14,938 bases of DNA, taken from IMG/VR virus record IMGVR_UViG_2690316148_000003. One strand, 5' to 3'. The first letter of the stretch is position 1, and each line of letters starts with the position of its first letter. Both the position numbers and the translations under genes were made by a program. The notes under the pieces are model-generated. The model was not told the DNA's origin, did no database searches, and was given only the letters and a program-made list of their open reading frames with translations. Origin of the DNA: a virus (lineage: Duplodnaviria > Heunggongvirae > Uroviricota > Caudoviricetes). This document shows, one piece after another, positions 708-9,547 of the stretch.

Positions 708-3614
708 ATGAGTCCATCAGAACTTAGCGACCTGCTTTGGGCGCAGGTTGACAGGGTGGCTCCGCACCTGTTGCCAAACGGCAAGAAAGAGGGGCATGAG
801 TGGGTTGCCGGTAACGTCAACGGTGACAAGGGAAACAGCCTTAAGGTCAACCTTAGCGGTAAGAAAAAATGGGCTGATTTCGCTGAGGGAGACGGCGGTG
901 ACATGCTTGATTTGTGGATGGCATGTCGTGGAATTAACCTGCATCAGGCTATGCAGGAAGCGAAAGCATTTCTCGGTATCAAGGATGACGATCACCATTT
1001 CGATGCCAGACGTGAGAAGAAATTCTCCAGACCTGATCGCAAGAAAATCGCCCACTACGTTACCAGAACAGAATCCCATCTTGAGTACCTGCAATCGCGT
1101 GGCATATCGCCAGAAGTCGTAAAGCGCTACGAGGTTGTCAGCGGCAAGGTGTGGAATGGAGAACGAGAACTGGATGCTCTGGTGCTTCCGTACAAACGCG
1201 ATGGTGAGTTGTTGCAGGTCAAGCGAATCAGCACTGAGCGCCCGGACGGGAAGAAAGTCATTATGGCAGAAGGTGATTGCGAACCTTGCCTGTTCGGATG
1301 GCAGGCTCTGGACGCTGGCGTGAGGGCGGTTGTGCTTTGCGAAGGCGAAATTGATTGTATGAGCTATGCGCAATACGGCATCTCGGCGTTATCCGTGCCG
1401 TTTGGTGGCGGGAAAGGCGCTAAGCAACAGTGGATTGAGTTTGAGTATCACAACCTCGACAGGTTTGAGGAAATATTCATCTCGATGGACGTTGATGATG
1501 TTGGTCGTGAAGCCGCAAGGGAAATCGCAAGCCGACTCGGTGAACATCGTTGCCGTCTTGTTACTCTGCCGTACAAAGACATCAACGAATGCCTGATGAA
1601 CGGTGTTACCGAGGATGAAATCTGGCAGTACATCGGCACGGCATCCTACTTCGATCCTGAAGAACTCTACAGCGCGCGCGAGTTTTACCAGGACACTATC
1701 AACGCTTTCTACGGCAAGCAGCAGTATCTGTTTAATCCACCGTGGGAATCTCTGGCAGATAAATTCCAGTTCCGTGAGGCAGAGTTGACGCTGGTCAATG
1801 GTGTGAACGGTCACGGAAAGGCATGCCCACTGAATGAGCCTATTCTTTTAGCTGATGGGACATGGACTACTCACGGGAATGTAAAAATTGGCGATCAGGT
1901 GGCGTCAGTAGACGGCAATCCGTCAACTGTCACTGGGATATTCCCGCAGGGTGTTAGAGATGTTTACCGAGTCACATTTGAAGATGGTCGTTATGTTGAT
2001 TGCGCAGGCGATCACCTATGGGAGGTCACTAGTCGTGGATTCACGAAAGGCGAGAAACGCCGCGTGATAGATACCTTCGGGTTGAAGCGGTTGAGTGAAA
2101 CGAAGAGGCACAAAAATGGCGTTAGGATTCCTGAAATAACTGGTGACTTTGGCGACCACTCAGAGCCATTAGCATGGGTTATCGGCTCCCTTCTCGGGGA
2201 TGGTAGTCTTAGCAATGGGAGCGTGAAGTTTTCAAACGTCGAGCCATACATGATCGAGCGTATGAAGGCTGAACTGCCTGATTACAACTTCTCTGGAGAT
2301 GGTAAGGACTGGCTGATATCAACGGCGCGTGGTCAGGTAAATCCACTCATGGAGACCCTGCGAGGTTATGGACTAATGGGGTGCACAGCAAAAAACAAAT
2401 TCATCCCTCGTGTGTTTTTTTCCGCAAATAAATCAACGCGTATAGGCATGCTGTGTGGTCTGCTTGAAACGGATGGGTATGTCGAGAAGGATGGAACGCT
2501 TGTTTTTTCCTCAGCAAGTGAAAAACTGCGCAATGGGGTTGTTCAACTGGTTAACTCACTCGGCGGGTCATGCCGGACGCGAGTTAAAACTGGCGTGACA
2601 TACACATACAAGGACGATAAGCGGCATGGGATGGATTCATACGAGGCAAGAATCAGACTGACAAGAGAAATCAGGGAGGCCATCCGTTCACCACGACTCA
2701 ATGGCAGATTAACTGCGCATCGATTCGAGGGCTGTGGGGTATTCGTCAGGAATGTTGAAAAAATCGGCAATGCAGAATGCTTGTGTATTATGGTCGATCA
2801 CCCTCGCCACCTGTATGTAACCAGGGGATATGTGGCGACGCATAACACCGAGGTTGTCGGGCATATGGCACTTGAGGCAATGCGTCAGGGTGTGAAGACG
2901 TGCATCGCGTCACTTGAGCTGAAGCCTGGTATTCTCCTTAAGCGACTTACCCGTCAGGCAACGTGCTGCAAGATGCCGCCAGTGCTGGAAATTGACTCTG
3001 CATTTAAATTTTATGACGAAAGACTTTGGGTGTTTGGCCTGACCGGAACGGCGAAAGCCGACAGGCTGATCGAAATATTCGACTACGCTCGCCGCCGATA
3101 CGGCATCCAGTTATTCATTATCGACAGCCTGATGAAATGCGGCATAGGTGACGATGACTATAACGGGCAGAAAGCGTTTGTTGACTCGATTTGTGACTTC
3201 AAAAACAAAACAAACTCCCACGTCATTCTCGTTACTCACTCCAGAAAAGGAGACAGCGAAGAAAAACCAACCGGGAAAATGGACGTGAAAGGCTCTGGAG
3301 CGATAACAGACCTGACAGACAACCTTTTCATCATCTGGCGTAACAAGGCTCGCGAGAGAGCGTTACAGAGAGTTCAGAGTGGTGAAAAGATGTCAGAGAA
3401 GGACGAACAGCTACTGGCGTCTCCTGCATCTGTTTTGATGCTTGAAAAACAACGTAACGGCGAAGGCTGGGAAGGTGGTGTTCCGTTGTTCCTTGACGAG
3501 CAATCGCACCAGTTCCTGCAACTTGAATCAGGATCGCCATATAGCTACATCGCCAATATGCCGAAATCGGAATATGACGAGGCGTGGCGACAGGAAAACG
3601 TGACGGAGTATTAA
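708..3614 (+). CDS. Bifunctional DNA primase / SF4 (DnaB-like, T7 gp4-type) replicative helicase, interrupted by an intein
   Basis: 968-aa ORF. N-terminal region has Toprim-like acidic motifs (LCEGEIDCMSYA, ISMDVDDVGREA). C-terminal half resembles the T7 gp4 helicase domain: Walker A GVNGHGK...T, then IIDSLMKCG and VTHSRKG-type motifs. In-frame stop at 702-704 fixes the start at 708. Confidence 0.9.
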   Translation: MSPSELSDLLWAQVDRVAPHLLPNGKKEGHEWVAGNVNGDKGNSLKVNLSGKKKWADFAEGDGGDMLDLWMACRGINLHQAMQEAKAFLGIKDDDHHFDARREKKFSRPDRKKIAHYVTRTESHLEYLQSRGISPEVVKRYEVVSGKVWNGERELDALVLPYKRDGELLQVKRISTERPDGKKVIMAEGDCEPCLFGWQALDAGVRAVVLCEGEIDCMSYAQYGISALSVPFGGGKGAKQQWIEFEYHNLDRFEEIFISMDVDDVGREAAREIASRLGEHRCRLVTLPYKDINECLMNGVTEDEIWQYIGTASYFDPEELYSAREFYQDTINAFYGKQQYLFNPPWESLADKFQFREAELTLVNGVNGHGKACPLNEPILLADGTWTTHGNVKIGDQVASVDGNPSTVTGIFPQGVRDVYRVTFEDGRYVDCAGDHLWEVTSRGFTKGEKRRVIDTFGLKRLSETKRHKNGVRIPEITGDFGDHSEPLAWVIGSLLGDGSLSNGSVKFSNVEPYMIERMKAELPDYNFSGDGKDWLISTARGQVNPLMETLRGYGLMGCTAKNKFIPRVFFSANKSTRIGMLCGLLETDGYVEKDGTLVFSSASEKLRNGVVQLVNSLGGSCRTRVKTGVTYTYKDDKRHGMDSYEARIRLTREIREAIRSPRLNGRLTAHRFEGCGVFVRNVEKIGNAECLCIMVDHPRHLYVTRGYVATHNTEVVGHMALEAMRQGVKTCIASLELKPGILLKRLTRQATCCKMPPVLEIDSAFKFYDERLWVFGLTGTAKADRLIEIFDYARRRYGIQLFIIDSLMKCGIGDDDYNGQKAFVDSICDFKNKTNSHVILVTHSRKGDSEEKPTGKMDVKGSGAITDLTDNLFIIWRNKARERALQRVQSGEKMSEKDEQLLASPASVLMLEKQRNGEGWEGGVPLFLDEQSHQFLQLESGSPYSYIANMPKSEYDEAWRQENVTEY
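1821..2846 (+). mobile_element. Intein (Hint domain plus LAGLIDADG homing-endonuclease domain) inserted in the helicase Walker A motif
   Basis: Insert lies between GVNGHGK and TEVVGHMALEAM. It begins ACPLNEPILLADG (Ala codon 1821-1823, Cys codon 1824-1826) and ends YVATHN (Asn codon 2844-2846), followed by Thr at +1. Two LAGLIDADG-type motifs: LAWVIGSLLGDGSL (about 2169-2210) and IGMLCGLLETDGYV (about 2442-2483). Block-B-like GRYVDCAGDHLW and block-F-like ECLCIMVDHPRHLY. N-terminal boundary uncertain by one codon (1821 or 1824). Confidence 0.7.
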
Positions 3615-3692: not shown

Positions 3693-3967
3693 ACGATAGC
3701 TACCGACAGTTTGAAAACTGGTGGTCAAAAGACAAAAGCCAGTTCACAGGAGACGATGAATTAAAAGAGTTTGCCTGGGTGATATGGCAGGCATCGCGAG
3801 CAGCTATTGAACTGGATATCGACTGGCCCGAATCGAATGACGACTTTTGGAAAGATGGTGAAGAAGGTGCTTATGCGATGGGTTATGAGGATGGGCGTGA
3901 CAAAACGGTAATTGCAGTAATGAAAGCCATCAGGGCCGCAGGAATCAAAGAAAAGAATTTCGATTAA
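3689..3967 (+). CDS. Hypothetical acidic protein (about 92 aa)
   Basis: Track ORF 3674..3967 uses a TTG start. GTG at 3689 is preceded by GGGGGAGAGGGAA (RBS-like). No family recognised. Confidence 0.5.
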   Translation: MNDSYRQFENWWSKDKSQFTGDDELKEFAWVIWQASRAAIELDIDWPESNDDFWKDGEEGAYAMGYEDGRDKTVIAVMKAIRAAGIKEKNFD

Positions 3968-4098
3968 GCAAATATCACTTCAATAAATCGCTTTTAAGGC
4001 ATCACAATCGCTCTGTAGCGAGGTAAACGCGTGCAAGGTATTTATATAGCAGCGAGAATGAAAAATGCGTCAGAATACGTTTGAGGAGGTTTTAAGAA

Positions 4099-4314
4099 AT
4101 GAGTTCGTTGACTGAGCTTGTCCGCGCCGACTTTCAGGAGAACATTGGTCGTGCAAAGCGGTACTGGTCTGCTTCCAGACTTCCGACTGGCGAGAGACAG
4201 AAAAACGCCCCTAAGCCACGGAGCTATCCGCGTGACCGCGTTCTTCGCCGGTTGGTTAAAATCGATAATGATTTTCAGTGTGACAGAATTATCCGGAGTC
4301 TGGATTTAAAGTGA
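4099..4314 (+). CDS. Hypothetical basic protein (71 aa)
   Basis: Strong RBS GAGGAGG at 4083-4089, 9 nt upstream of ATG 4099. No family recognised. Confidence 0.6.
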   Translation: MSSLTELVRADFQENIGRAKRYWSASRLPTGERQKNAPKPRSYPRDRVLRRLVKIDNDFQCDRIIRSLDLK

Positions 4315-4324
4315 AGGAGTGAGC

Positions 4325-4621
4325 ATGAGCAAAGTATCACGAGGAATGAAAATATCGCTTATTTTCATCCTTAATCCGCATCGTATCTTTTTGGCTTCAG
4401 CAGTATGGCTGTCATATTTTGTTTATTGGTTAGCAGATAAATTGGATGATTTTGCGAAATGGCTTGAGAATTTTGCGAATGCGAGGTTTGAGTCATGGCC
4501 GCTTATCGGAGAGAAGATGTCTGACGAATTAAACCGGTATTACGCGGATAAGCGCAAGGAGAAGAGCAGGAGGGCAAGTGAAGCAATTATTCCTGCTTCG
4601 CAACGAAGCAATCAGAAATAA
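4325..4621 (+). CDS. Hypothetical protein with hydrophobic N-terminal segment (about 98 aa)
   Basis: AAGGAG at 4314-4319, 5 nt upstream of ATG 4325 (track ORF starts at GTG 4319). 3' end overlaps the ninB start by about 44 nt. Confidence 0.5.
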   Translation: MSKVSRGMKISLIFILNPHRIFLASAVWLSYFVYWLADKLDDFAKWLENFANARFESWPLIGEKMSDELNRYYADKRKEKSRRASEAIIPASQRSNQK

Positions 4622-5024
4622 CGCCATAGACGCCATTCTCTCACTACCCATCGACGACAAGTCACCCCACGAAGTCCACGTTAGAGAACCCAAACGCAGC
4701 AAAGCGCAGAATGACCGTATGTGGCCGATGCTGAACGATGTTTCGCGTCAGGTGCTATGGCATGGTCAACGGCTGGCGCCGGAAGACTGGAAAGACCTGT
4801 TCACTGCCCTGTGGCTTAAGACCAAAAAACTGGAGCAACGAAGTGCGCCTGGTATCGGCGGTGGCGTTGTCATGCTTGGCGTGCGTACCAGCAAAATGCG
4901 AAAGGCCAGCATGACTGAGCTTATCGAAATCATGTTCTGGTTCGGCTCAGAGCGCAACGTGCGGTGGAGTGATAACTCCCGGCGAGAGTATGAATGGTCA
5001 CAACGAACAGGGAGGGCGGCATGA
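4578..5024 (+). CDS. ninB: NinB (Orf-family recombination protein)
   Basis: 148-aa product resembles phage lambda NinB as recalled ([32 protein letters not shown]-terminal GRAA). GTG start at 4578. Confidence 0.85.
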
Positions 5025-5197
5025 GGCGACAGCGACGAAGTATTACCGACATAATCTGTGAAAACTGCAAATACCTTCCAACGAAACGCTCCAGAAATAA
5101 ACGCAAGCCAATCCCAAAAGAATCTGACGTAAAAACCTTCAACTACACGGCTCACCTGTGGGATATCCGGTGGCTAAGACATCGTGCGAGGAAATGA
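5021..5197 (+). CDS. ninE: NinE-family protein
   Basis: ATG at 5021 overlaps the ninB stop (ATGA), with GGAGGG just upstream. Product [38 protein letters not shown] matches lambdoid NinE as recalled. Confidence 0.7.
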
Positions 5198-5238
5198 CTA
5201 TTTATCCGGTGCGCCGCCAGAATGACGGCGCGGTGTGG

Positions 5239-5547
5239 TTAAACGAAGCGGATCTGGAGTTTTTTTCCAGTAGCGCGGGCGAATTTTTTTAGGGTGGCAA
5301 ATGATGGGCCGCTGATACCTGATGCGAGATTACTTTCCATTCTGGTGATCGCGGTCGCTTTTGTTCCCATTCGCTCGGCAACTTCAGCCTGAGTTAAGCC
5401 AGCTTCTTTGCGTGCTGCCAGCATTTCATCAAGCAGTGCGAATTCGTCAGCGATAGCGTCGTATTCTGCTTTAAAAGCCGGGTCTTCCATCCATTTGGCT
5501 GCCATTTCGTCGTGTGTCATGGTGGGGAGAGTGCGTTTACCAGTCAT
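5239..5547 (-). CDS. HTH (XRE-type) antitoxin / addiction-module antidote protein, HigA-like
   Basis: 102-aa product has a C-terminal HTH (GLTQAEVAERMGTKATAITRMES). Strong SD GAAGGAGG upstream on the minus strand. Overlaps the upstream toxin ORF by 11 nt. Confidence 0.8.
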   Translation of the reverse strand: MTGKRTLPTMTHDEMAAKWMEDPAFKAEYDAIADEFALLDEMLAARKEAGLTQAEVAERMGTKATAITRMESNLASGISGPSFATLKKFARATGKKLQIRFV

Positions 5548-5866
5548 GCTTAACCTCCTTCATTCTGGTTTCAGCTTTCTTGCGTTCGGCTGGCGGTGTT
5601 TTCTGCGTTTTCTTTACAAAACTATGCAGCATGATGATGCGTTTCCCTGTCAGAGTGCAGTAAAAAACACGCGCGATCCCATCGTTGCCTTTAATTCTGA
5701 GTTCGAAAAGTCCGTCACCAAAGGCGCTGGTGTGAGGTTCTCCGAGATTGCTGCCATATATCTTCATACGTTCAACGAGATGTTGGTATCGGGCACGCAT
5801 ACTCAATGGAAGCCGATCGACTTCCAGCCTTACATCTTCACTGTAGTATTCGATAGTGTAGTTCAT
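5537..5866 (-). CDS. RelE/ParE-superfamily toxin (Gp49-like / HigB-like addiction-module killer protein)
   Basis: About 110 aa from the internal Met (MNYTIEYYSEDVRLEVDRLP...RVFYCTLTGKRIIMLHSFVKKTQKTPPAERKKAE). Toxin-first gene order, as in HigB/HigA modules. Start uncertain: ATG at 5866 or 5878; the track's longer N-terminal extension is unlikely. Confidence 0.75.
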   Translation of the reverse strand: MNYTIEYYSEDVRLEVDRLPLSMRARYQHLVERMKIYGSNLGEPHTSAFGDGLFELRIKGNDGIARVFYCTLTGKRIIMLHSFVKKTQKTPPAERKKAETRMKEVKHDW

Positions 5867-5876
5867 AGGTATCAAC

Positions 5877-5892
5877 ATAACAAAATTGTTAT
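5877..5892. promoter_or_regulatory. Inverted repeat ATAACAA-AA-TTGTTAT at the toxin start; candidate operator for antitoxin autoregulation
   Basis: 7-bp perfect arms with 2-bp spacer, seen directly. It overlaps the alternative toxin start codon and a TATAAC -10-like hexamer on the minus strand. Confidence 0.4.
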
Positions 5893-6001
5893 ATGCATTC
5901 AAGGCCTGTAGTTGACGACAACACATATCCGGGGCTATATTCCTCACGCGCCAGCAAAATCTGGCGTCGGGATTGGAACCCCGGATATCGAAACGGTGCA
6001 T

Positions 6002-6021
6002 ACCGCGCTGGCGGTTTTTTT
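6002..6021 (+). terminator. Candidate rho-independent terminator (plus orientation)
   Basis: ACCGC-GCTG-GCGGT hairpin followed by seven T (6015-6021). Short stem, so moderate confidence. Confidence 0.4.
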
Positions 6022-6184
6022 ATGCGCTAAGCACAGTCACATTCGCGATTTATGGCGGGCTGTGTGGGGGCACCGAAAGGTGCGCCGGATGTTTCGACCG
6101 GTAGTTCCAACCCTGCACAGTTCGCCACCCGATGATTGGAACCTGAAGGTGGTGAGGTAAAAATTATCGAAACGCGAGGTCGTT

Positions 6185-6871
6185 ATGACTGTTCAAGTTG
6201 CTGTCAAAAACCTTTCCCCTGTCACTTATAACCAGATTCCTGTAATCACAACTGAGTTACTCGCCCGCCTTTACGGAACAGAAGCAATCCGTATACAGCA
6301 GAATCACCATGAAAATAAATCTCGATTTATTGAGGGAAAACACTTCTTTAAAGCTGTTGGTGATGAGCTCAAAAATTTGCGACTAGTTTTAAACGAGTCG
6401 CAAAATGAGGTGAAAATTTCTCCAAAAACCCGCTCCCTCATCCTCTGGACAGAACGCGGCGCAGCTCGTCACGCGAAGATGCTCGAAACCGATCAGGCAT
6501 GGGACGTGTTCGAAAAACTGGAAGACTGCTATTTCAGCCAGACTTCGAAAAGCGCAGGTCATCACGAGAAGAAAACCAGCGAGCTTTCTGCAAAAGATGC
6601 AAACAGTCTGGTATGGTTGTGGGATTATGCCAACCGCTCACAGGCATTATTCCGCGAACTGTATCCGGCGCTAAGACAAATTCAGTCTAACTATTCCGGC
6701 AGATGCCACGACTACGGTCATGAGTTCTCGTATGTTATCGGAATGGCGAGAGACGTTTTAATCAATCACACACGAGATGTTGATATTAATGAGCCAGACG
6801 GACCAACGAATCTTTCTGCATGGGTAAGACTTAAGAACAAAGAATTACCTCCTTCACTACATCACTACTGA
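6185..6871 (+). CDS. ORF6N-domain (antirepressor-type N-terminal domain) protein with an unassigned C-terminal half
   Basis: GAGGT RBS 4 nt before ATG 6185. N-terminal region ([16 protein letters not shown]...[22 protein letters not shown]...[15 protein letters not shown]) fits the ORF6N pattern as recalled. C-terminal ~110 aa not recognised. Confidence 0.7.
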
Positions 6872-6889
6872 CAGATTGCCAACGCAACG

Positions 6890-6914
6890 ACCCAGCTTCG
6901 GCTGGGTTTTTTAT
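6890..6914 (+). terminator. Rho-independent terminator
   Basis: ACCCAGC-TTCG-GCTGGGT hairpin followed by TTTTTTATT, immediately after the 6185..6871 stop. Confidence 0.7.
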
Positions 6915-6945
6915 TGCTGAATTTTCAATATGAGAGGACATGACA

Positions 6946-7200
6946 ATGAACGAGCTGATAAATAGCAACGCCATCAAAATGACCAGCATTGAAATCGCTG
7001 AGTTGGTGGGTAAGCGTCATGACAATGTGAAACGTACCATCGAAACGCTGGTTAAAAGTGGAGTTATCCGGCTTCCTCAAATTGAGGTTTCCGAAAGAAT
7101 CAATAACTTAGGGTTCAATGTTCAGTACGAGCATTACGTCTTCGAAGGCGAACAAGGTAAGCGCGACAGCATTATTGTCGTTGAAGGAGGTGTTGCATGA
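6946..7200 (+). CDS. Rha-family phage regulatory protein (short, Rha domain only)
   Basis: MTSIEIAELVGKRHDNVKRTIETL matches the Rha N-terminal motif as recalled. GAGAGGA RBS favours ATG 6946 over the track's 6940. Stop overlaps the next start (ATGA). Confidence 0.75.
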   Translation: MNELINSNAIKMTSIEIAELVGKRHDNVKRTIETLVKSGVIRLPQIEVSERINNLGFNVQYEHYVFEGEQGKRDSIIVVEGGVA

Positions 7201-7967
7201 ATGCCGTAATTATTGCCAACGCAGAAATCGTGCCGATTGAGTTTAATGGCGAGCGTGTTGTTACGTATCAAATGATTGCTGATATTCACGGGGTTCCAGT
7301 AGCCACTATTCAAAATGGCTATGCGCGAAACTCTGAGTATTTCATAGACAGGGAAGATACATATTTTATTGATTTTCATGAAAATACCTTTAGAAGGGGT
7401 TTTGAAATTCCTCCTCGTGGCATGCGAGTTTTCACTGAATCAGGCTATTTGATGCTGGTTAAAACCCTGCGCGACGAGACGGCGTGGAGAGTGCAACGTG
7501 AGCTTGTTCGCAATTATTTTCGTGGCCAAAAAGAAGATAAGTCAGCCTTGCCCGACTTCACAAACCCTGCTGAAGCCGCCAGAGCGTGGGCAAACGAATA
7601 TGAGCAGAAAGTGAAGCTGGAGCAACAACTCGCGATTGCCGCACCTAAAGTTGAGTTTGCCGATCGCGTTGGCGAGGCCAGCGGAATTTTGATTGGAAAC
7701 TTTGCAAAGGTTGTTGGTATTGGCCCAAACAAACTGTTTGCGTGGATGCGTGATCACAAAATCCTTATTGCTTCAGGTTCCCGGCGCAATGTGCCAATGC
7801 AGGAATATATGGATCGCGGCTATTTCACAGTGAAAGAAACAGCGGTCAACACAAATCACGGAATACAGATATCGTTCACCACAAAAATCACCGGGCGTGG
7901 TCAACAGTGGCTGACCAGAAAGCTGCTCGATAACGGAATGCTGAAAGTAACAGGGGAGGCTGCATGA
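7197..7967 (+). CDS. Phage antirepressor: N-terminal ORF6N/AntA-like domain plus C-terminal KilA-C (ANT) domain
   Basis: 256 aa. N-terminal ARNSEYFIDREDTYFI-type motif; C-terminal LFAWMRDHKILIASGSRRNVPMQEYMDRGYF resembles KilA-C. Translationally coupled at both ends. Confidence 0.8.
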   Translation: MNAVIIANAEIVPIEFNGERVVTYQMIADIHGVPVATIQNGYARNSEYFIDREDTYFIDFHENTFRRGFEIPPRGMRVFTESGYLMLVKTLRDETAWRVQRELVRNYFRGQKEDKSALPDFTNPAEAARAWANEYEQKVKLEQQLAIAAPKVEFADRVGEASGILIGNFAKVVGIGPNKLFAWMRDHKILIASGSRRNVPMQEYMDRGYFTVKETAVNTNHGIQISFTTKITGRGQQWLTRKLLDNGMLKVTGEAA

Positions 7968-8326
7968 ATGAGTACAGATTCACGCTTCCATACCCACCAT
8001 CGCTGAATACCTACTGGCGAAGACGGGGAAGCCAATACTACATCAGCGATAAAGGCCAGAAATACCGAAAAGACGTTCAGCAAATCATCCGCCAACTCAA
8101 GTTAGATATTTTCACCAAAGCACGACTCCGCATCAAAGTCATCGCAGACGTTCCAGACTCCCGCCGCCGCGACCTCGACAACATCCTGAAGGGGCTACTC
8201 GACTCTCTTATCCACGCCGGATTTGCGGAAGACGACGAGCAATTCGATGACATTCGCGTAATTCGTGGTGTGAAAGTACCAGGCGGAAGGCTTGGAATAA
8301 AAATCACCGAACTGGAGAACGTATGA
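7964..8326 (+). CDS. rusA: Holliday-junction resolvase RusA
   Basis: 120 aa. PYPPSLNTYWRRRG, PDSRRRDLDNILKGLLDSL and RLGIKITE match RusA as recalled. Confidence 0.85.
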   Translation: MNEYRFTLPYPPSLNTYWRRRGSQYYISDKGQKYRKDVQQIIRQLKLDIFTKARLRIKVIADVPDSRRRDLDNILKGLLDSLIHAGFAEDDEQFDDIRVIRGVKVPGGRLGIKITELENV

Positions 8327-8511
8327 ACGCCACAATTCAAACGATACCAGAGCTTCTTATCCAGACACGAGGCAATCAGACCGAAGTGGCGAGGATGCTT
8401 TCCTGCGCAAGAGGAACAGTGCTCAAGTACAACCGAGACAGCAAAGGCGAGCGTCACGTAATAGTTAACGGCGTCCTGATGGTCAAACAGGGCAAGAGGG
8501 GAAGACGATGA
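8323..8511 (+). CDS. ninH: NinH-like protein
   Basis: 62 aa. GNQTEVARMLSCARGTVLKY...VIVNGVLMV resembles lambda NinH. Located immediately upstream of Q, as in lambda. Confidence 0.65.
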   Translation: MNATIQTIPELLIQTRGNQTEVARMLSCARGTVLKYNRDSKGERHVIVNGVLMVKQGKRGRR

Positions 8512-9131
8512 GACTCGAAAGCGTAGCTAAATTTCATTCGCCAAAAAGCCCGATGATGAGCGACTCACCACGGGCTACGGCTTCTGACTCTCTTTCCGGT
8601 ACTGATGTGATGGCTGCTATGGGGATGGCGCAATCACAAGCCGGATTCGGAATGGCTGCATTTTGCGGTAAGCATGAACTCAGCCAGAACGACAAACAAA
8701 AGGCTATCAACTATCTGATGCAATTTGCACACAAGGTATCGGGGAAATACCGTGGTGTGGCAAAGCTCGAAGGAAATACTAAGGCAAAGGTACTGCAAGT
8801 GCTCGCAACATTCGCTTATGCGGATTATTGCCGTAGTGCCGCGACGCCGGGCGCAAGATGCAGAGATTGCCACGGAACAGGTCTGGCAGTTGATATAGCC
8901 AAAACAGAGCAGTGGGGGAGAGTTGTCGAGAAAGAGTGCGGAAGATGCAAAGGTGTCGGCTATTCAAGGATGCCAGCAAGTGCAGCATATCGCGCTGTAA
9001 CGATGCTAATCCCAAACCTCACCCAACCCACATGGTCACGCACTGTTAAGCCGCTGTATGACGCTCTGGTGGTGCAATGCCACAAAGAAGAGTCAATCGC
9101 AGACAACATTTTGAATGCGGTCACACGTTAG
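8508..9131 (+). CDS. Q: Late-gene antiterminator Q (lambda-type)
   Basis: 207-aa product appears essentially identical to phage lambda Q as recalled (MRLESVAKFHSPKSPMMSDSPRATASDSLSG...CRDCHGTG...CGRCKGVGYSRMP...NAVTR). Confidence 0.9.
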   Translation: MRLESVAKFHSPKSPMMSDSPRATASDSLSGTDVMAAMGMAQSQAGFGMAAFCGKHELSQNDKQKAINYLMQFAHKVSGKYRGVAKLEGNTKAKVLQVLATFAYADYCRSAATPGARCRDCHGTGLAVDIAKTEQWGRVVEKECGRCKGVGYSRMPASAAYRAVTMLIPNLTQPTWSRTVKPLYDALVVQCHKEESIADNILNAVTR

Positions 9132-9391: not shown

Positions 9392-9466
9392 GGGTCAGTC
9401 GTATAAAGGTCATTACGGAAGGCTGTTAACCTTCTTATCGTTGTTCGAGTCCACGCTGTCCCGCCA
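9392..9466 (+). tRNA. tRNA-like gene, anticodon GUU (Asn), with mismatches in acceptor, D and T stems; possibly degenerate
   Basis: Hand-folded cloverleaf: acceptor GGGTCAG/CTGTCCC (one T-T mismatch), perfect anticodon stem GAAGG/CCTTC with loop CTGTTAA, T-loop TTCGAGT, discriminator G, encoded CCA. Confidence 0.45.
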
Positions 9467-9471
9467 AATAT

Positions 9472-9547
9472 GCTGGTTTAGCTCTAATGGTAGAGCAGTC
9501 GCCTTGTAAGCGAATGGGTAGCGGTTCAAGTCCGTTAACCAGCACCA
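9472..9547 (+). tRNA. tRNA, anticodon UGU (Thr)
   Basis: Hand-folded cloverleaf: perfect 7-bp acceptor stem GCTGGTT/AACCAGC, D-stem GCTC/GAGC, anticodon loop CTTGTAA, T-arm AGCGG-TTCAAGT-CCGTT, discriminator A, encoded CCA. 76 nt. Confidence 0.75.

Follow-up and report, generated by a model that had tools for sequence, protein, structure and literature searches.

The structured gap upstream of the antirepressor gene in this 14,938-nt stretch of viral DNA (the window, meaning the whole stretch analysed) is a copy of a known phage RNA switch, a C4 antisense RNA with its proposed decoy, IsrK; it is real, ordinary and already known. Positions 5912-6184 very probably form an RNA control module of the phage P1 immI type. 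The module serves as the leader of the gene at 6185-6871, lies in the nin region of a lambdoid prophage and would hold the downstream antirepressor untranslated. The first-pass annotation had suggested a small RNA divergent from the toxin-antitoxin operon; the module is not simply that, but the leader of the gene that follows it. What the analysis established directly is the family membership, the anatomy, all six complementarities with their covariation among relatives, and what the gene after the module encodes (Table 1).

Table 1. Positions of the module's features and of the gene that follows it in the window.
Feature	Position	Strand	Details
Sigma-70-type promoter-like site (predicted)	-35 TTGACG 5912-5917; -10 TATATT 5936-5941	+	18-nt spacer; 10/12 consensus matches
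5' arm of 10-bp inverted repeat, ATATCCGGGG	5925-5934	+	in promoter spacer; unique in window
IsrK-like small RNA (predicted)	5948-6021	+	Rfam isrK RF01394; carries a1/b1; also predicted 5' part of read-through transcript
Hairpin 1	5948-5967	+	loop CAAAAU; CGCCAG-CAAAAT-CTGGCG at 5949-5966
Hairpin 2	5968-5983	+	CGGG/CCCG; a1 in loop
a1, UUGGAAC	5973-5979	+	loop of hairpin 2; complementary to a' of C4; equals P1 'putative a1 target site'
3' arm of 10-bp inverted repeat, CCCCGGATAT	5979-5988	+	overlaps last a1 nucleotide, 3' strand of hairpin 2 and a1-b1 linker; unique in window
b1, UCGAAAC	5988-5994	+	inside 10-mer TATCGAAACG (5986-5995); complementary to b'; corresponds to P1 b1
Intrinsic terminator (predicted)	6002-6014, then 6015-6021	+	terminator-like hairpin ACCGC-GCUG-GCGGU, then U7 (T7)
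C4-type antisense RNA	6054-6129 (76 nt)	+	mature ends predicted from alignment to 77-nt P1 C4
b', GUUUCGA	6091-6097	+	9-nt loop of second C4 hairpin; same position as P1 b' (UCACUAAC)
a', GUUCCAA	6104-6110	+	single-stranded C4 junction; same position as P1 a' (CUGUCAA)
a2, UUGGAAC	6136-6142	+	6 nt past predicted C4 3' end; complementary to a'
b2, UCGAAAC	6167-6173	+	inside TATCGAAACG (6165-6174); complementary to b'
Regulated gene	6185-6871	+	228-aa antirepressor; ORF6N and P22 antirepressor C-terminal domains

Three Rfam families matched the plus strand above their curated cut-offs and in the right order (c4-a1b1, isrK, C4). C4 (RF01695) scored 75.2 bits against a cut-off of 45, with a full-length match (1-87 of 87) at 6048-6132, and isrK (RF01394) scored 72.1 bits against 50, with model positions 1-77 of 77 matched at 5948-6021. 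The margin was narrow for c4-a1b1 (RF03163; 50.1 bits against 46.7) at 5935-5987. We observed two hairpins presenting a1 and then b1 upstream of the C4 RNA, as in c4-a1b1, and two 5' hairpins with a Rho-independent terminator, as in IsrK. The isrK and C4 pair was also present in ten phage homologues (lambdoid, Stx and Uetakevirus phages); P1 itself scored as c4-a1b1 plus C4, not isrK, on the Rfam models. The earlier description of the region as unusually structured was borne out by the RNA fold of 5920-6200 (-122 kcal/mol; z = -5.9 versus 200 dinucleotide shuffles).

The C4 RNA comprises a long tRNA-like stem, the hairpin GCACC-GAAA-GGUGC, a second hairpin (GCCGG/CCGGU, 6084-6102) and a 3' ACC tail. 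The first of these hairpins had been noticed before, but at about 6078-6092; it lies at 6070-6083 and is part of C4. The minimum free energy (MFE) fold of 6054-6129 showed the architecture of P1 C4, with a closing stem, two internal hairpins and a single-stranded junction. Among 30 diverse relatives, compensatory changes occurred at 15 of the 25 predicted pairs and almost none were broken, and both the UAU|GG flank and the 3' ACC tail were conserved. We rejected a tRNA as the identity of this RNA, as neither ARAGORN nor the Rfam tRNA model detected a cloverleaf with an anticodon arm. No tRNA or tmRNA was called by these tools in 5900-6200, and the window's only tRNAs are at 9392-9547.

The motif TTGGAAC occurs three times in the window, as the first-pass annotation had reported. 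The copy on the minus strand (GTTCCAA on the plus strand) is at 6104-6110 and not 6103-6109, and the third copy is at 6136-6142 and not 6137-6143. Three occurrences in 14.9 kb are not unusual (2.2 expected), and all three lie within 170 nt. Copies 1 and 3 do share their flanks, with GATTGGAACC common to 5971-5980 and 6134-6143. The parallel b set (the two TATCGAAACG copies and their complement GTTTCGA at 6091-6097) and the second RNA, C4, had been overlooked. We found a2 in the loop of a hairpin (CGCCACC 6123-6129 / GGUGGUG 6148-6154) whose closing stem covaries across modules. The b2 element is 2 nt before the Shine-Dalgarno sequence GAGG (6176-6179) and 11 nt before the ATG at 6185. In 89 of 93 related modules, b2 ended 6-12 nt (median 10) ahead of the start codon.

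We assessed covariation in 123 unique modules, drawn from 131 fetched phage loci and the window. The a and b elements varied in sequence across these modules (for a, at least 25 distinct 7-mers; for b', 64 distinct loops), and complementarity was kept three ways. The longest exact complement of a' with its own a1 or a2 had a median of 7 nt; for b' the median was 7 nt with b1 and 9 nt with b2. Non-cognate a/b pairs reached 5 nt. MFE co-folding of C4 with its targets did not return the a/b contacts, as expected for loop-loop pairing, so that the contacts rest on complementarity and covariation. The TTGGAAC copies had been put forward as footprinting sites for adjacent regulators; judged by their covariation, they are the RNA-RNA pairing elements a1, a' and a2, not protein sites.

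The product of the downstream gene matched P22_AR_C (2.2e-28) and ORF6N (2.6e-20) in Pfam. Because it has these two domains we call it a putative antirepressor, a function taken from the family name; in homologous phage records the gene at the corresponding position is annotated as antirepressor. We did not find a leader ORF of the icd or orf45 type coupled to this gene: b2 stands directly before the antirepressor's own Shine-Dalgarno sequence and ATG, and lambdoid homologues have no ORF between b2 and the antirepressor start either. The two relatives that have been studied by experiment, P1 and Gifsy-1, each have such a leader ORF, with translation coupled to the antirepressor; it is lacking here, and the details of repression may therefore differ.

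Upstream of the RNAs, the promoter-like sequence pointed out in the first-pass annotation is present and was the sole such site in a scan of 5800-6250. It predicts a transcription start near 5948, and its position with respect to hairpin 1 is that of P1c4/P51b, the promoter annotated in P1. Neither upstream of 5912 nor in the stretch from the terminator to C4 did a second promoter reach the scan threshold. The perfect hairpin and the terminator described earlier are also there. Over 92 related sequences, pairing reached 91% for hairpin 1, where each position showed several pair types, and 100% for hairpin 2; a run of at least five T between a1 and C4 was present in all 97 well-parsed related modules. 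Two further candidates in this part of the region were rejected. An anti-terminator formed by the hairpin-1 arm CGCCAGC (5949-5955) and GCTGGCG (6007-6013) loses its complementarity in the terminators of relatives, as judged by eye. A LexA-box-like CTGT-N8-ACAA (5906-5921) was a weak match by eye, and its CTGT is missing in a close homologue.

We infer transcription, processing, repression and a decoy role for this particular prophage as follows. Transcription would start near 5948 from the promoter at 5912-5941, and most transcripts would end at the terminator (6002-6021), giving an IsrK-like RNA of ~74 nt that displays a1 and b1. Read-through would give the C4 precursor and the antirepressor mRNA. 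The tRNA-like C4 (~6054-6129) would be excised, its 5' end probably generated by RNase P by analogy with P1. Mature C4 would expose b' in a hairpin loop and a' in the junction, and may pair with a2 and b2 on the mRNA of its own operon. As b2 abuts the Shine-Dalgarno sequence, we propose that this pairing keeps ribosomes off the antirepressor gene. Bearing the same two sites, the a1/b1 RNA could, we propose, draw C4 away from the mRNA, either in cis while still part of the precursor or in trans once it is a separate short RNA, turning the antirepressor on.

The order of elements in P1/P7 immI (c4-icd-ant1/ant2; RF01695, RF03163) is the same: promoter, a1, b1, terminator-like hairpin, C4, a2, b2, antirepressor. 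In both modules C4 is tRNA-like and carries b' in a loop and a' at the junction, b2 is at a ribosome-binding site, the a contact spans 7 nt and the b contact 7-8 nt, and a single promoter serves target and antisense RNA alike. The spacings are close. The a1-b1 gap is 8 nt here and 7 nt in P1, C4 is 76 and 77 nt long, C4 ends 6 and 3 nt before a2, the a2-b2 gap is 24 and 22 nt, and b2 ends 11 and 10 nt before a start codon. All six pairing sequences, however, are unlike those of P1 (UUGGAAC / UCGAAAC here, UUGACAG / GUUAGUG(A/C) in P1), which would mean a different specificity. P1 b2, annotated 'repression of icd ant translation', lies at the ribosome-binding site of the small gene icd, whose translation ant requires, whereas here there is no icd and b2 lies at the antirepressor's own site. 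The regulated product is an antirepressor in both, of the ORF6N/P22_AR_C type here. P1 is also a plasmid prophage with a second, C1-controlled upstream promoter, whereas this module is in the nin region of a lambdoid prophage and our promoter scan detected no such second site.

Two other phage systems are similar in part. In satellite phage P4, the CI RNA is a small RNA processed from a leader transcript that pairs with two target copies (seqA/seqC), upstream and downstream, and so holds immunity. A processed RNA with one target copy on each side is common to P4 and this module, whereas CI causes premature transcription termination of the replication genes and not occlusion of an antirepressor ribosome-binding site; a P4-type RNA had no Rfam match in the region. 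P22 immI (sar, Mnt/Arc, ant) shares an antisense RNA that limits antirepressor synthesis, and the P22_AR_C domain. The P22 sar RNA is transcribed from the opposite strand across the ant ribosome-binding site and is a true cis-antisense RNA. Unlike sar, C4 is on the same strand as its target and upstream of it, and would pair by two short loop contacts.

The lambdoid counterpart is the Salmonella Gifsy-1 locus isrK-orf45(STnc1160)-anrP (RF01394; PMC4825925). It shares the lambdoid prophage context and a terminated small RNA with two hairpins and the loops CAAAAU and UUGGNNN. Also common to both are a read-through that continues into a structured RNA, an antirepressor gene after it, and complementarity of the short RNA to the downstream structured RNA. 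Gifsy-1 differs in having a 45-codon ORF overlapping the C4-like RNA, with its stop fused to the anrP start as AUGA (translational coupling); the equivalent frame here opens at the ATG at 6052, closes after 27 codons with a stop at 6133-6135 and leaves 50 nt to the ATG at 6185. In Gifsy-1, supplying IsrK in trans increased translation of anrP 139-fold. STnc1160, a stable processed RNA encoded downstream of IsrK, required the isrK promoter, and the inactive structure was regained in the compensatory mutants G28A/C162U and G31A/C159U (PMC4825925). Mapped on a Salmonella-phage homologue, these four positions appear to fall in a1 and a'. Hfq binding and trans activation of antirepressor translation are known only for Gifsy-1 IsrK (PMC4825925), and even there it is unsettled whether IsrK acts as a C4 decoy or by direct remodelling of the mRNA. 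The same study discusses the P4 CI RNA as a parallel to the Gifsy-1 system and does not name P1 c4 (PMC4825925). Salmonella IsrK scores as the a1/b1 portion of a c4 module like that of P1; by homology, the orf45/STnc1160 RNA most likely corresponds to C4.

Mutational and native-gel data from the isrK locus led to a different scheme there (PMC4825925), which would make 5948-6184 a self-inhibiting leader. The leader would be translationally silent through pairing of a1 and b1 in cis with the C4-like domain, the short terminated RNA would only be an activator that opens this fold, and processed C4 would be no repressor. We consider this possible for the window, if on balance unlikely. The a1:a' and b1:b' complementarities that it requires are present, and the MFE structure of the long transcript encloses C4 with a helix between 6033-6047 and the Shine-Dalgarno and start-codon region (6174-6192). 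That helix was not conserved (median z = -0.67 in 88 modules; -1.9 here), and we rejected sequestration of the antirepressor ribosome-binding site by 6033-6047 as a mechanism. The scheme also leaves unaccounted for the a2 and b2 elements, which duplicate a1 and b1 and covary with a' and b' in the 123 modules, and the position of b2 at the ribosome-binding site. P1 C4 is moreover annotated as a trans-acting repressor at a2/b2, and the window has no orf45-type coupled ORF. The cis scheme and repression by C4 as in P1 are not mutually exclusive.

The reading that starts from the first-pass annotation has an independent small RNA of ~75 nt beside the toxin-antitoxin operon, with TTGGAAC as operators for neighbouring regulatory proteins and the 10-bp stem inside the RNA. 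Its promoter, terminator and predicted small RNA agree with the isrK match, and TTGGAAC is indeed confined to the region. However, one copy is antisense within a structured RNA, at the position of P1 a', and in relatives the three copies change jointly to at least 25 other 7-mers with RNA complementarity always kept. The b set behaves in the same way, and one arm of the 10-bp stem, the 5' one, precedes the predicted start and falls within the promoter spacer. As a whole, this reading is very improbable. A protein-coding region, as the track ORF 5912..6160 (82 aa) or the smaller ORFs 5893..6030 and 5973..6104, has next to no chance of being correct. Open frames do exist, some phage records annotate short 'hypothetical protein' genes here, and long open frames cross the module in some relatives. 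Yet the annotated ORFs of relatives are inconsistent in position and frame, and the frame from the conserved ATG at the C4 5' flank is 27 codons long here, compared with 14 in P1 and over 68 in other modules. The C4 loops of relatives show indels of 1-5 nt, not confined to triplets, together with paired compensatory changes, and two RNA genes, along with a promoter and a terminator, would all fall inside the 82-aa ORF. The Gifsy-1 authors likewise found orf45 conserved in nucleotides and not in amino acids (PMC4825925). The earlier doubt about ORF 5912..6160 was thus well placed.

The P1-type module does not account for the 10-bp inverted repeat. The repeat is an exact match where it had been reported, and its 5' arm is between the -35 and -10 elements, upstream of the predicted start at ~5948, so the stem cannot belong to the proposed small RNA. 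Covariation had been suggested as a check on the stems: the C4 stem and hairpin 1 do covary, but the 10-bp stem was not conserved as aligned columns over the family as a whole. We rejected it as a conserved RNA helix, as 54% of cells paired compared to 43-44% in shifted controls (92-sequence alignment), and it competes with hairpin 2. In an alignment-free test, complementarity between spacer and linker was above that of shuffles (median z = -2.1; 52% of modules below -2), with a modest plus-strand G.U bias. Several promoter families showed complementarity of the promoter spacer to the a1-b1 linker with differing sequences (ATATCCGGGG/CCCCGGATAT here, AATTCCGGGACGT/GCGTCCTGGAATT and TAGTAATC/GATTACTA elsewhere), and the P1 counterpart is TTCAGGCT / AGCCTGAA. 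The cross-family complementarity matrix was only partly diagonal because CCGGG/CCCGG cores are shared. That the repeat marks an undescribed layer of control in C4/IsrK modules is a distinctly doubtful idea. If true, only transcripts entering from upstream would hold the 5' arm, such as those from the C1-controlled P51a of P1 or read-through from a lambdoid early operon. The stem would replace the a1 hairpin in such transcripts and could alter the ability of a1/b1 to act as a decoy, which would link control of the antirepressor with whether upstream genes are being transcribed.

Among the RefSeq and GenBank records that we examined, RNA annotation was absent both from the region and from its near-identical counterparts in many E. 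coli prophages and Stx phages, and some records instead carry spurious small or over-long ORFs here. Seeing the module there explains the "empty" 300 bp and marks the gene after it as a probable prophage-induction switch, an antirepressor under tight control. What is already known about the working of such modules is unchanged by the present analysis. The comparison joins the IsrK and P1 c4 literatures, which the papers examined keep apart. The relatives reveal a large set of mutually distinct a/b sequences, and we propose that these 7-nt elements may serve as an address code, which would make each phage module specific to itself.

The structured stretch between the toxin and ORF6N genes had been correctly singled out, and the system it belongs to is already known: a P1 immI-type C4 antisense RNA with an IsrK-type a1/b1 partner, controlling an antirepressor. 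An Rfam scan of the whole window at curated cut-offs returned c4-a1b1, isrK and C4 matches here (see table), and no tRNA was called in the module region. The isrK match spans the small RNA predicted by the first-pass annotation and bears that prediction out. We found the 10-bp inverted repeat (exact-match check), the promoter-like hexamers, the CGCCAG-CAAAAT-CTGGCG hairpin and the terminator-like hairpin with its T-run where they had been placed. The GCACC-GAAA-GGTGC hairpin, which is the first hairpin of C4, and all three TTGGAAC copies are also present, with corrected positions for the hairpin, the antisense copy (GTTCCAA) and the third copy. The RNA fold of 5920-6200 was much more stable than shuffles (z = -5.9).

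Features of the RNA module and its neighbourhood in the window
Feature	Coordinates	Strand	Basis or detail
NinB	4578-5024		Pfam
HTH antitoxin	5239-5547	-	Pfam
Gp49/HigB-type toxin	5537-5866	-	Pfam
Promoter-like TTGACG / TATATT	5912-5917 / 5936-5941		18-nt spacer
10-bp inverted repeat ATATCCGGGG / CCCCGGATAT	5925-5934 / 5979-5988
c4-a1b1	5935-5987	+	Rfam, 50.1 bits (cut-off 46.7)
isrK	5948-6021	+	Rfam, 72.1 bits (cut-off 50)
Hairpin CGCCAG-CAAAAT-CTGGCG	5949-5966
a1 (UUGGAAC)			Loop of second hairpin, IsrK part
b1 (UCGAAAC)
TATCGAAACG, two copies	5986-5995, 6165-6174
Terminator-like hairpin, then T7	6002-6014, 6015-6021
C4 antisense RNA	6048-6132	+	Rfam, 75.2 bits (cut-off 45)
C4, tRNA-like, predicted mature ends	6054-6129		76 nt
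GCACC-GAAA-GGTGC hairpin	6070-6083
GTTTCGA	6091-6097		Complement of the TATCGAAACG motif
b'			Loop of second C4 hairpin, as in P1
a'			C4 junction, as in P1
TTGGAAC, antisense copy	6104-6110
TTGGAAC, third copy	6136-6142
ORF6N + P22_AR_C, antirepressor	6185-6871		Pfam
Second antirepressor, ORF6N + ANT	7197-7967		Pfam, 256 aa
RusA	7964-8326		Pfam
Antiterminator Q	8508-9131		Pfam

The total TTGGAAC count in the window is unremarkable (3 vs 2.2 expected), and all three copies lie inside 170 nt. A second motif set, TATCGAAACG and its complement, had been overlooked. The P1 reference genome annotates the immI operon with promoters, a1, b1, a 77-nt C4 RNA, a2, b2, icd and ant. In such modules a1/b1 are the proposed decoy sites, b'/a' the pairing sites of C4, and a2/b2 its targets downstream. 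The a/b sequences of the window are unlike those of P1 (a1 UUGGAAC vs UUGACAG; b1 UCGAAAC vs GUUAGUGC). The layout is closely similar: the a1-b1 gap is 8 nt in the window and 7 nt in P1, C4 is 76 and 77 nt, the C4 3' end lies 6 and 3 nt from a2, the a2-b2 gap is 24 and 22 nt, and b2 lies 11 and 10 nt from the start codon. Between b1 and C4, the window has a terminator and P1 a terminator-like hairpin. On this part-by-part agreement, we assign the three TTGGAAC copies at sequence level to a1, a' and a2 of a P1-type module; their earlier reading as candidate sites for adjacent regulators was mistaken. The leader ORF coupled to the antirepressor (icd in P1, orf45 in Gifsy-1) has no counterpart in the window, where GAGG and the ATG at 6185 follow b2 directly, as in the lambdoid homologues. 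The frame that starts at a conserved ATG flanking C4 on its 5' side is 27 codons long in the window (stop 6133-6135). No second upstream promoter was detected in the window, unlike in P1.

The isrK and C4 pair also occurs in 10 phage homologues (Stx phages including VT2-Sakai, other lambdoid phages and Uetakevirus); P1 scores as c4-a1b1 and C4, not as isrK. A pattern search of IMG/VR for the C4 core added 120 loci, giving 123 unique modules with the phage homologues. Across these, the longest exact complement had a median of 7 nt for a' against its own a1 or a2, and of 7 and 9 nt for b' against its own b1 and b2, compared to 5 nt for non-cognate a/b combinations. We observed at least 25 a 7-mers and 64 b' loops, with the TTGGAAC type in 7 unique modules; a1, a' and a2 co-vary in nearly every case. 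Of 25 pairs in the C4 fold, 15 showed compensatory changes and almost none were broken. In the IsrK part, hairpin 1 was 91% paired and its positions each used several pair types; hairpin 2 was 100% paired. A T-run separates a1 from C4 in all 97 well-parsed modules (97/97), and b2 ends 6-12 nt upstream of the start codon in 89 of 93. The first-pass annotation would have given up its reading had the stems not been conserved or covarying in relatives; they are kept and covary, so the reading stands on this point. Tandem arrays of complete modules at 656-bp spacing occur in three IMG/VR contigs (L058, three copies; L036 and L037, two each). The L058 copies differ in a specificity, which suggests stacked, mutually independent switches.

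For the window, the analysis shows that the module belongs to the family, that it has six complementary sites which covary in relatives, that b2 lies at the ribosome-binding site (RBS) and that the gene downstream is of the antirepressor type. In P1, according to Citron, Biere, Hartmann and Schuster and to the annotation, C4 is reportedly released from the operon transcript by processing, its 5' end being generated by RNase P, and is said to pair with a2/b2 and block translation at b2; through this block it reportedly also lowers downstream transcription. By analogy, the module's own promoter would yield a short a1/b1 RNA, and read-through would yield C4 and the antirepressor mRNA. C4 would shut the antirepressor RBS through a2/b2, and the a1/b1 RNA would compete for C4 and could lift the block.

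In Gifsy-1, the whole operon is transcribed from the isrK promoter, the IsrK terminator stops most transcripts, and that promoter is also required for a stable processed RNA encoded further downstream than IsrK (PMC4825925). The long transcript is translationally silent, antirepressor translation rises 139-fold with IsrK in trans, and combining G28A with C162U, or G31A with C159U, brings the silent fold back (PMC4825925). When mapped onto a Salmonella-phage homologue, G28 and G31 lie in a1 (UUGGCGU), and two C residues three apart fall in a' (ACGCCAA). By this mapping, made through the homologue rather than the Gifsy-1 sequence, the published helix most likely includes a1:a' pairing.

The 10-bp stem had been placed in the small RNA. 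The 5' arm sits in the spacer that separates the -35 and -10 hexamers, ahead of the point where transcription is predicted to begin. The 3' arm takes in the final nucleotide of a1 and overlaps the 3' strand of hairpin 2, which does not vary among relatives. This position excludes the stem from the IsrK-like RNA. Scored by aligned columns, the stem was not conserved across the family (54% paired vs 43-44% in shifted controls). In an alignment-free test, the promoter region and the a1-b1 linker were more complementary than shuffles (median z = -2.1; 52% of modules < -2). The pairing sequences differ between promoter families, P1 included (TTCAGGCT / AGCCTGAA), and stems were longer with plus-strand G.U pairs allowed than with the opposite-strand equivalent (47 vs 32 sequences). 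The cross-family energy matrix was only partly diagonal because CCGGG/CCCGG cores are common to the families. The stem is real in the window and possibly functional in transcripts entering from upstream. In many E. coli genomes the match to the window (96-98% identity) begins only at 5926 and extends rightwards; left of that point, just 13 E. coli genomes cover the sequence, at ~91%. A mosaic recombination junction therefore falls within the promoter spacer, where the repeat's 5' arm starts.

Other pairings were also considered. A conserved GGUGGUGA at 6148-6155, between a2 and b2, is complementary as GGTGGTGA to the C4 3' end (CGCCACC at 6123-6129 in the window, TCACCACC in most relatives) and covaries with it (GTGGCGGAC/GTCCGCCAC and GGTGATGG/CCATCACC). 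The resulting hairpin would hold a2 in its loop and could form only if the base of the C4 stem opened, which suggests that the precursor takes alternative folds. A helix between leader 6033-6047 and the RBS, present in the MFE structure, was rejected as not conserved in relatives. The 5' arm of hairpin 1 (CGCCAGC, 5949-5955) is complementary to the terminator loop and 3' arm (GCTGGCG, 6007-6013) and could act as an anti-terminator; no conservation was apparent in relatives inspected by eye.

The window is a lambdoid prophage nin region. Between the toxin start (5866, minus strand) and the IsrK promoter lies a perfect palindrome, ATAACAA-AA-TTGTTAT (5877-5892), which probably serves the antitoxin as operator at the divergent toxin-antitoxin promoter. 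Directly downstream of the C4-controlled antirepressor, 6940-7967 holds a truncated Rha-like ORF (86 aa, first 27 profile positions only) 5' of the second antirepressor. A third plus-strand copy of the b-site 9-mer ATCGAAACG, at 7039-7047, falls within the Rha-like ORF, away from any a site, and is probably chance. Further away, a 968-aa Toprim/AAA_25 primase-helicase-like protein (708-3614) has a central LAGLIDADG_3 match above and a Hom_end Hint match below the Pfam cut-off, which suggests an intein with a homing endonuclease. Adjacent tRNA-Asn(GTT) and tRNA-Thr(TGT) genes lie at 9392-9547; P1 (L011, 29349-29502) has the same pair in the same order, only ~68% identical.

A match was found in ~950 of 5426 complete E. 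coli genomes, and window 3914-7183 is matched by one IMG/VR contig at 99.8% identity. In phage records the module precedes genes named antirepressor, Ant or Rha, and the SfV and Ayreon records call the stretch 'immunity region'. RNA annotation was absent from all phage and RefSeq E. coli records examined. In public phage records, protein-coding genes are annotated across the IsrK or C4 RNAs (L009 744-1886, L010 1029-1574, L001 1499-1621, L004 1291-1464), under labels including 'putative antirepressor', 'transcriptional regulator' and 'hypothetical protein'; these are likely mis-annotations. One subfamily keeps a frame open for >68 codons through the module. What the finding contributes is annotation, together with the demonstration that the work on IsrK and the work on c4 deal with a single type of module.
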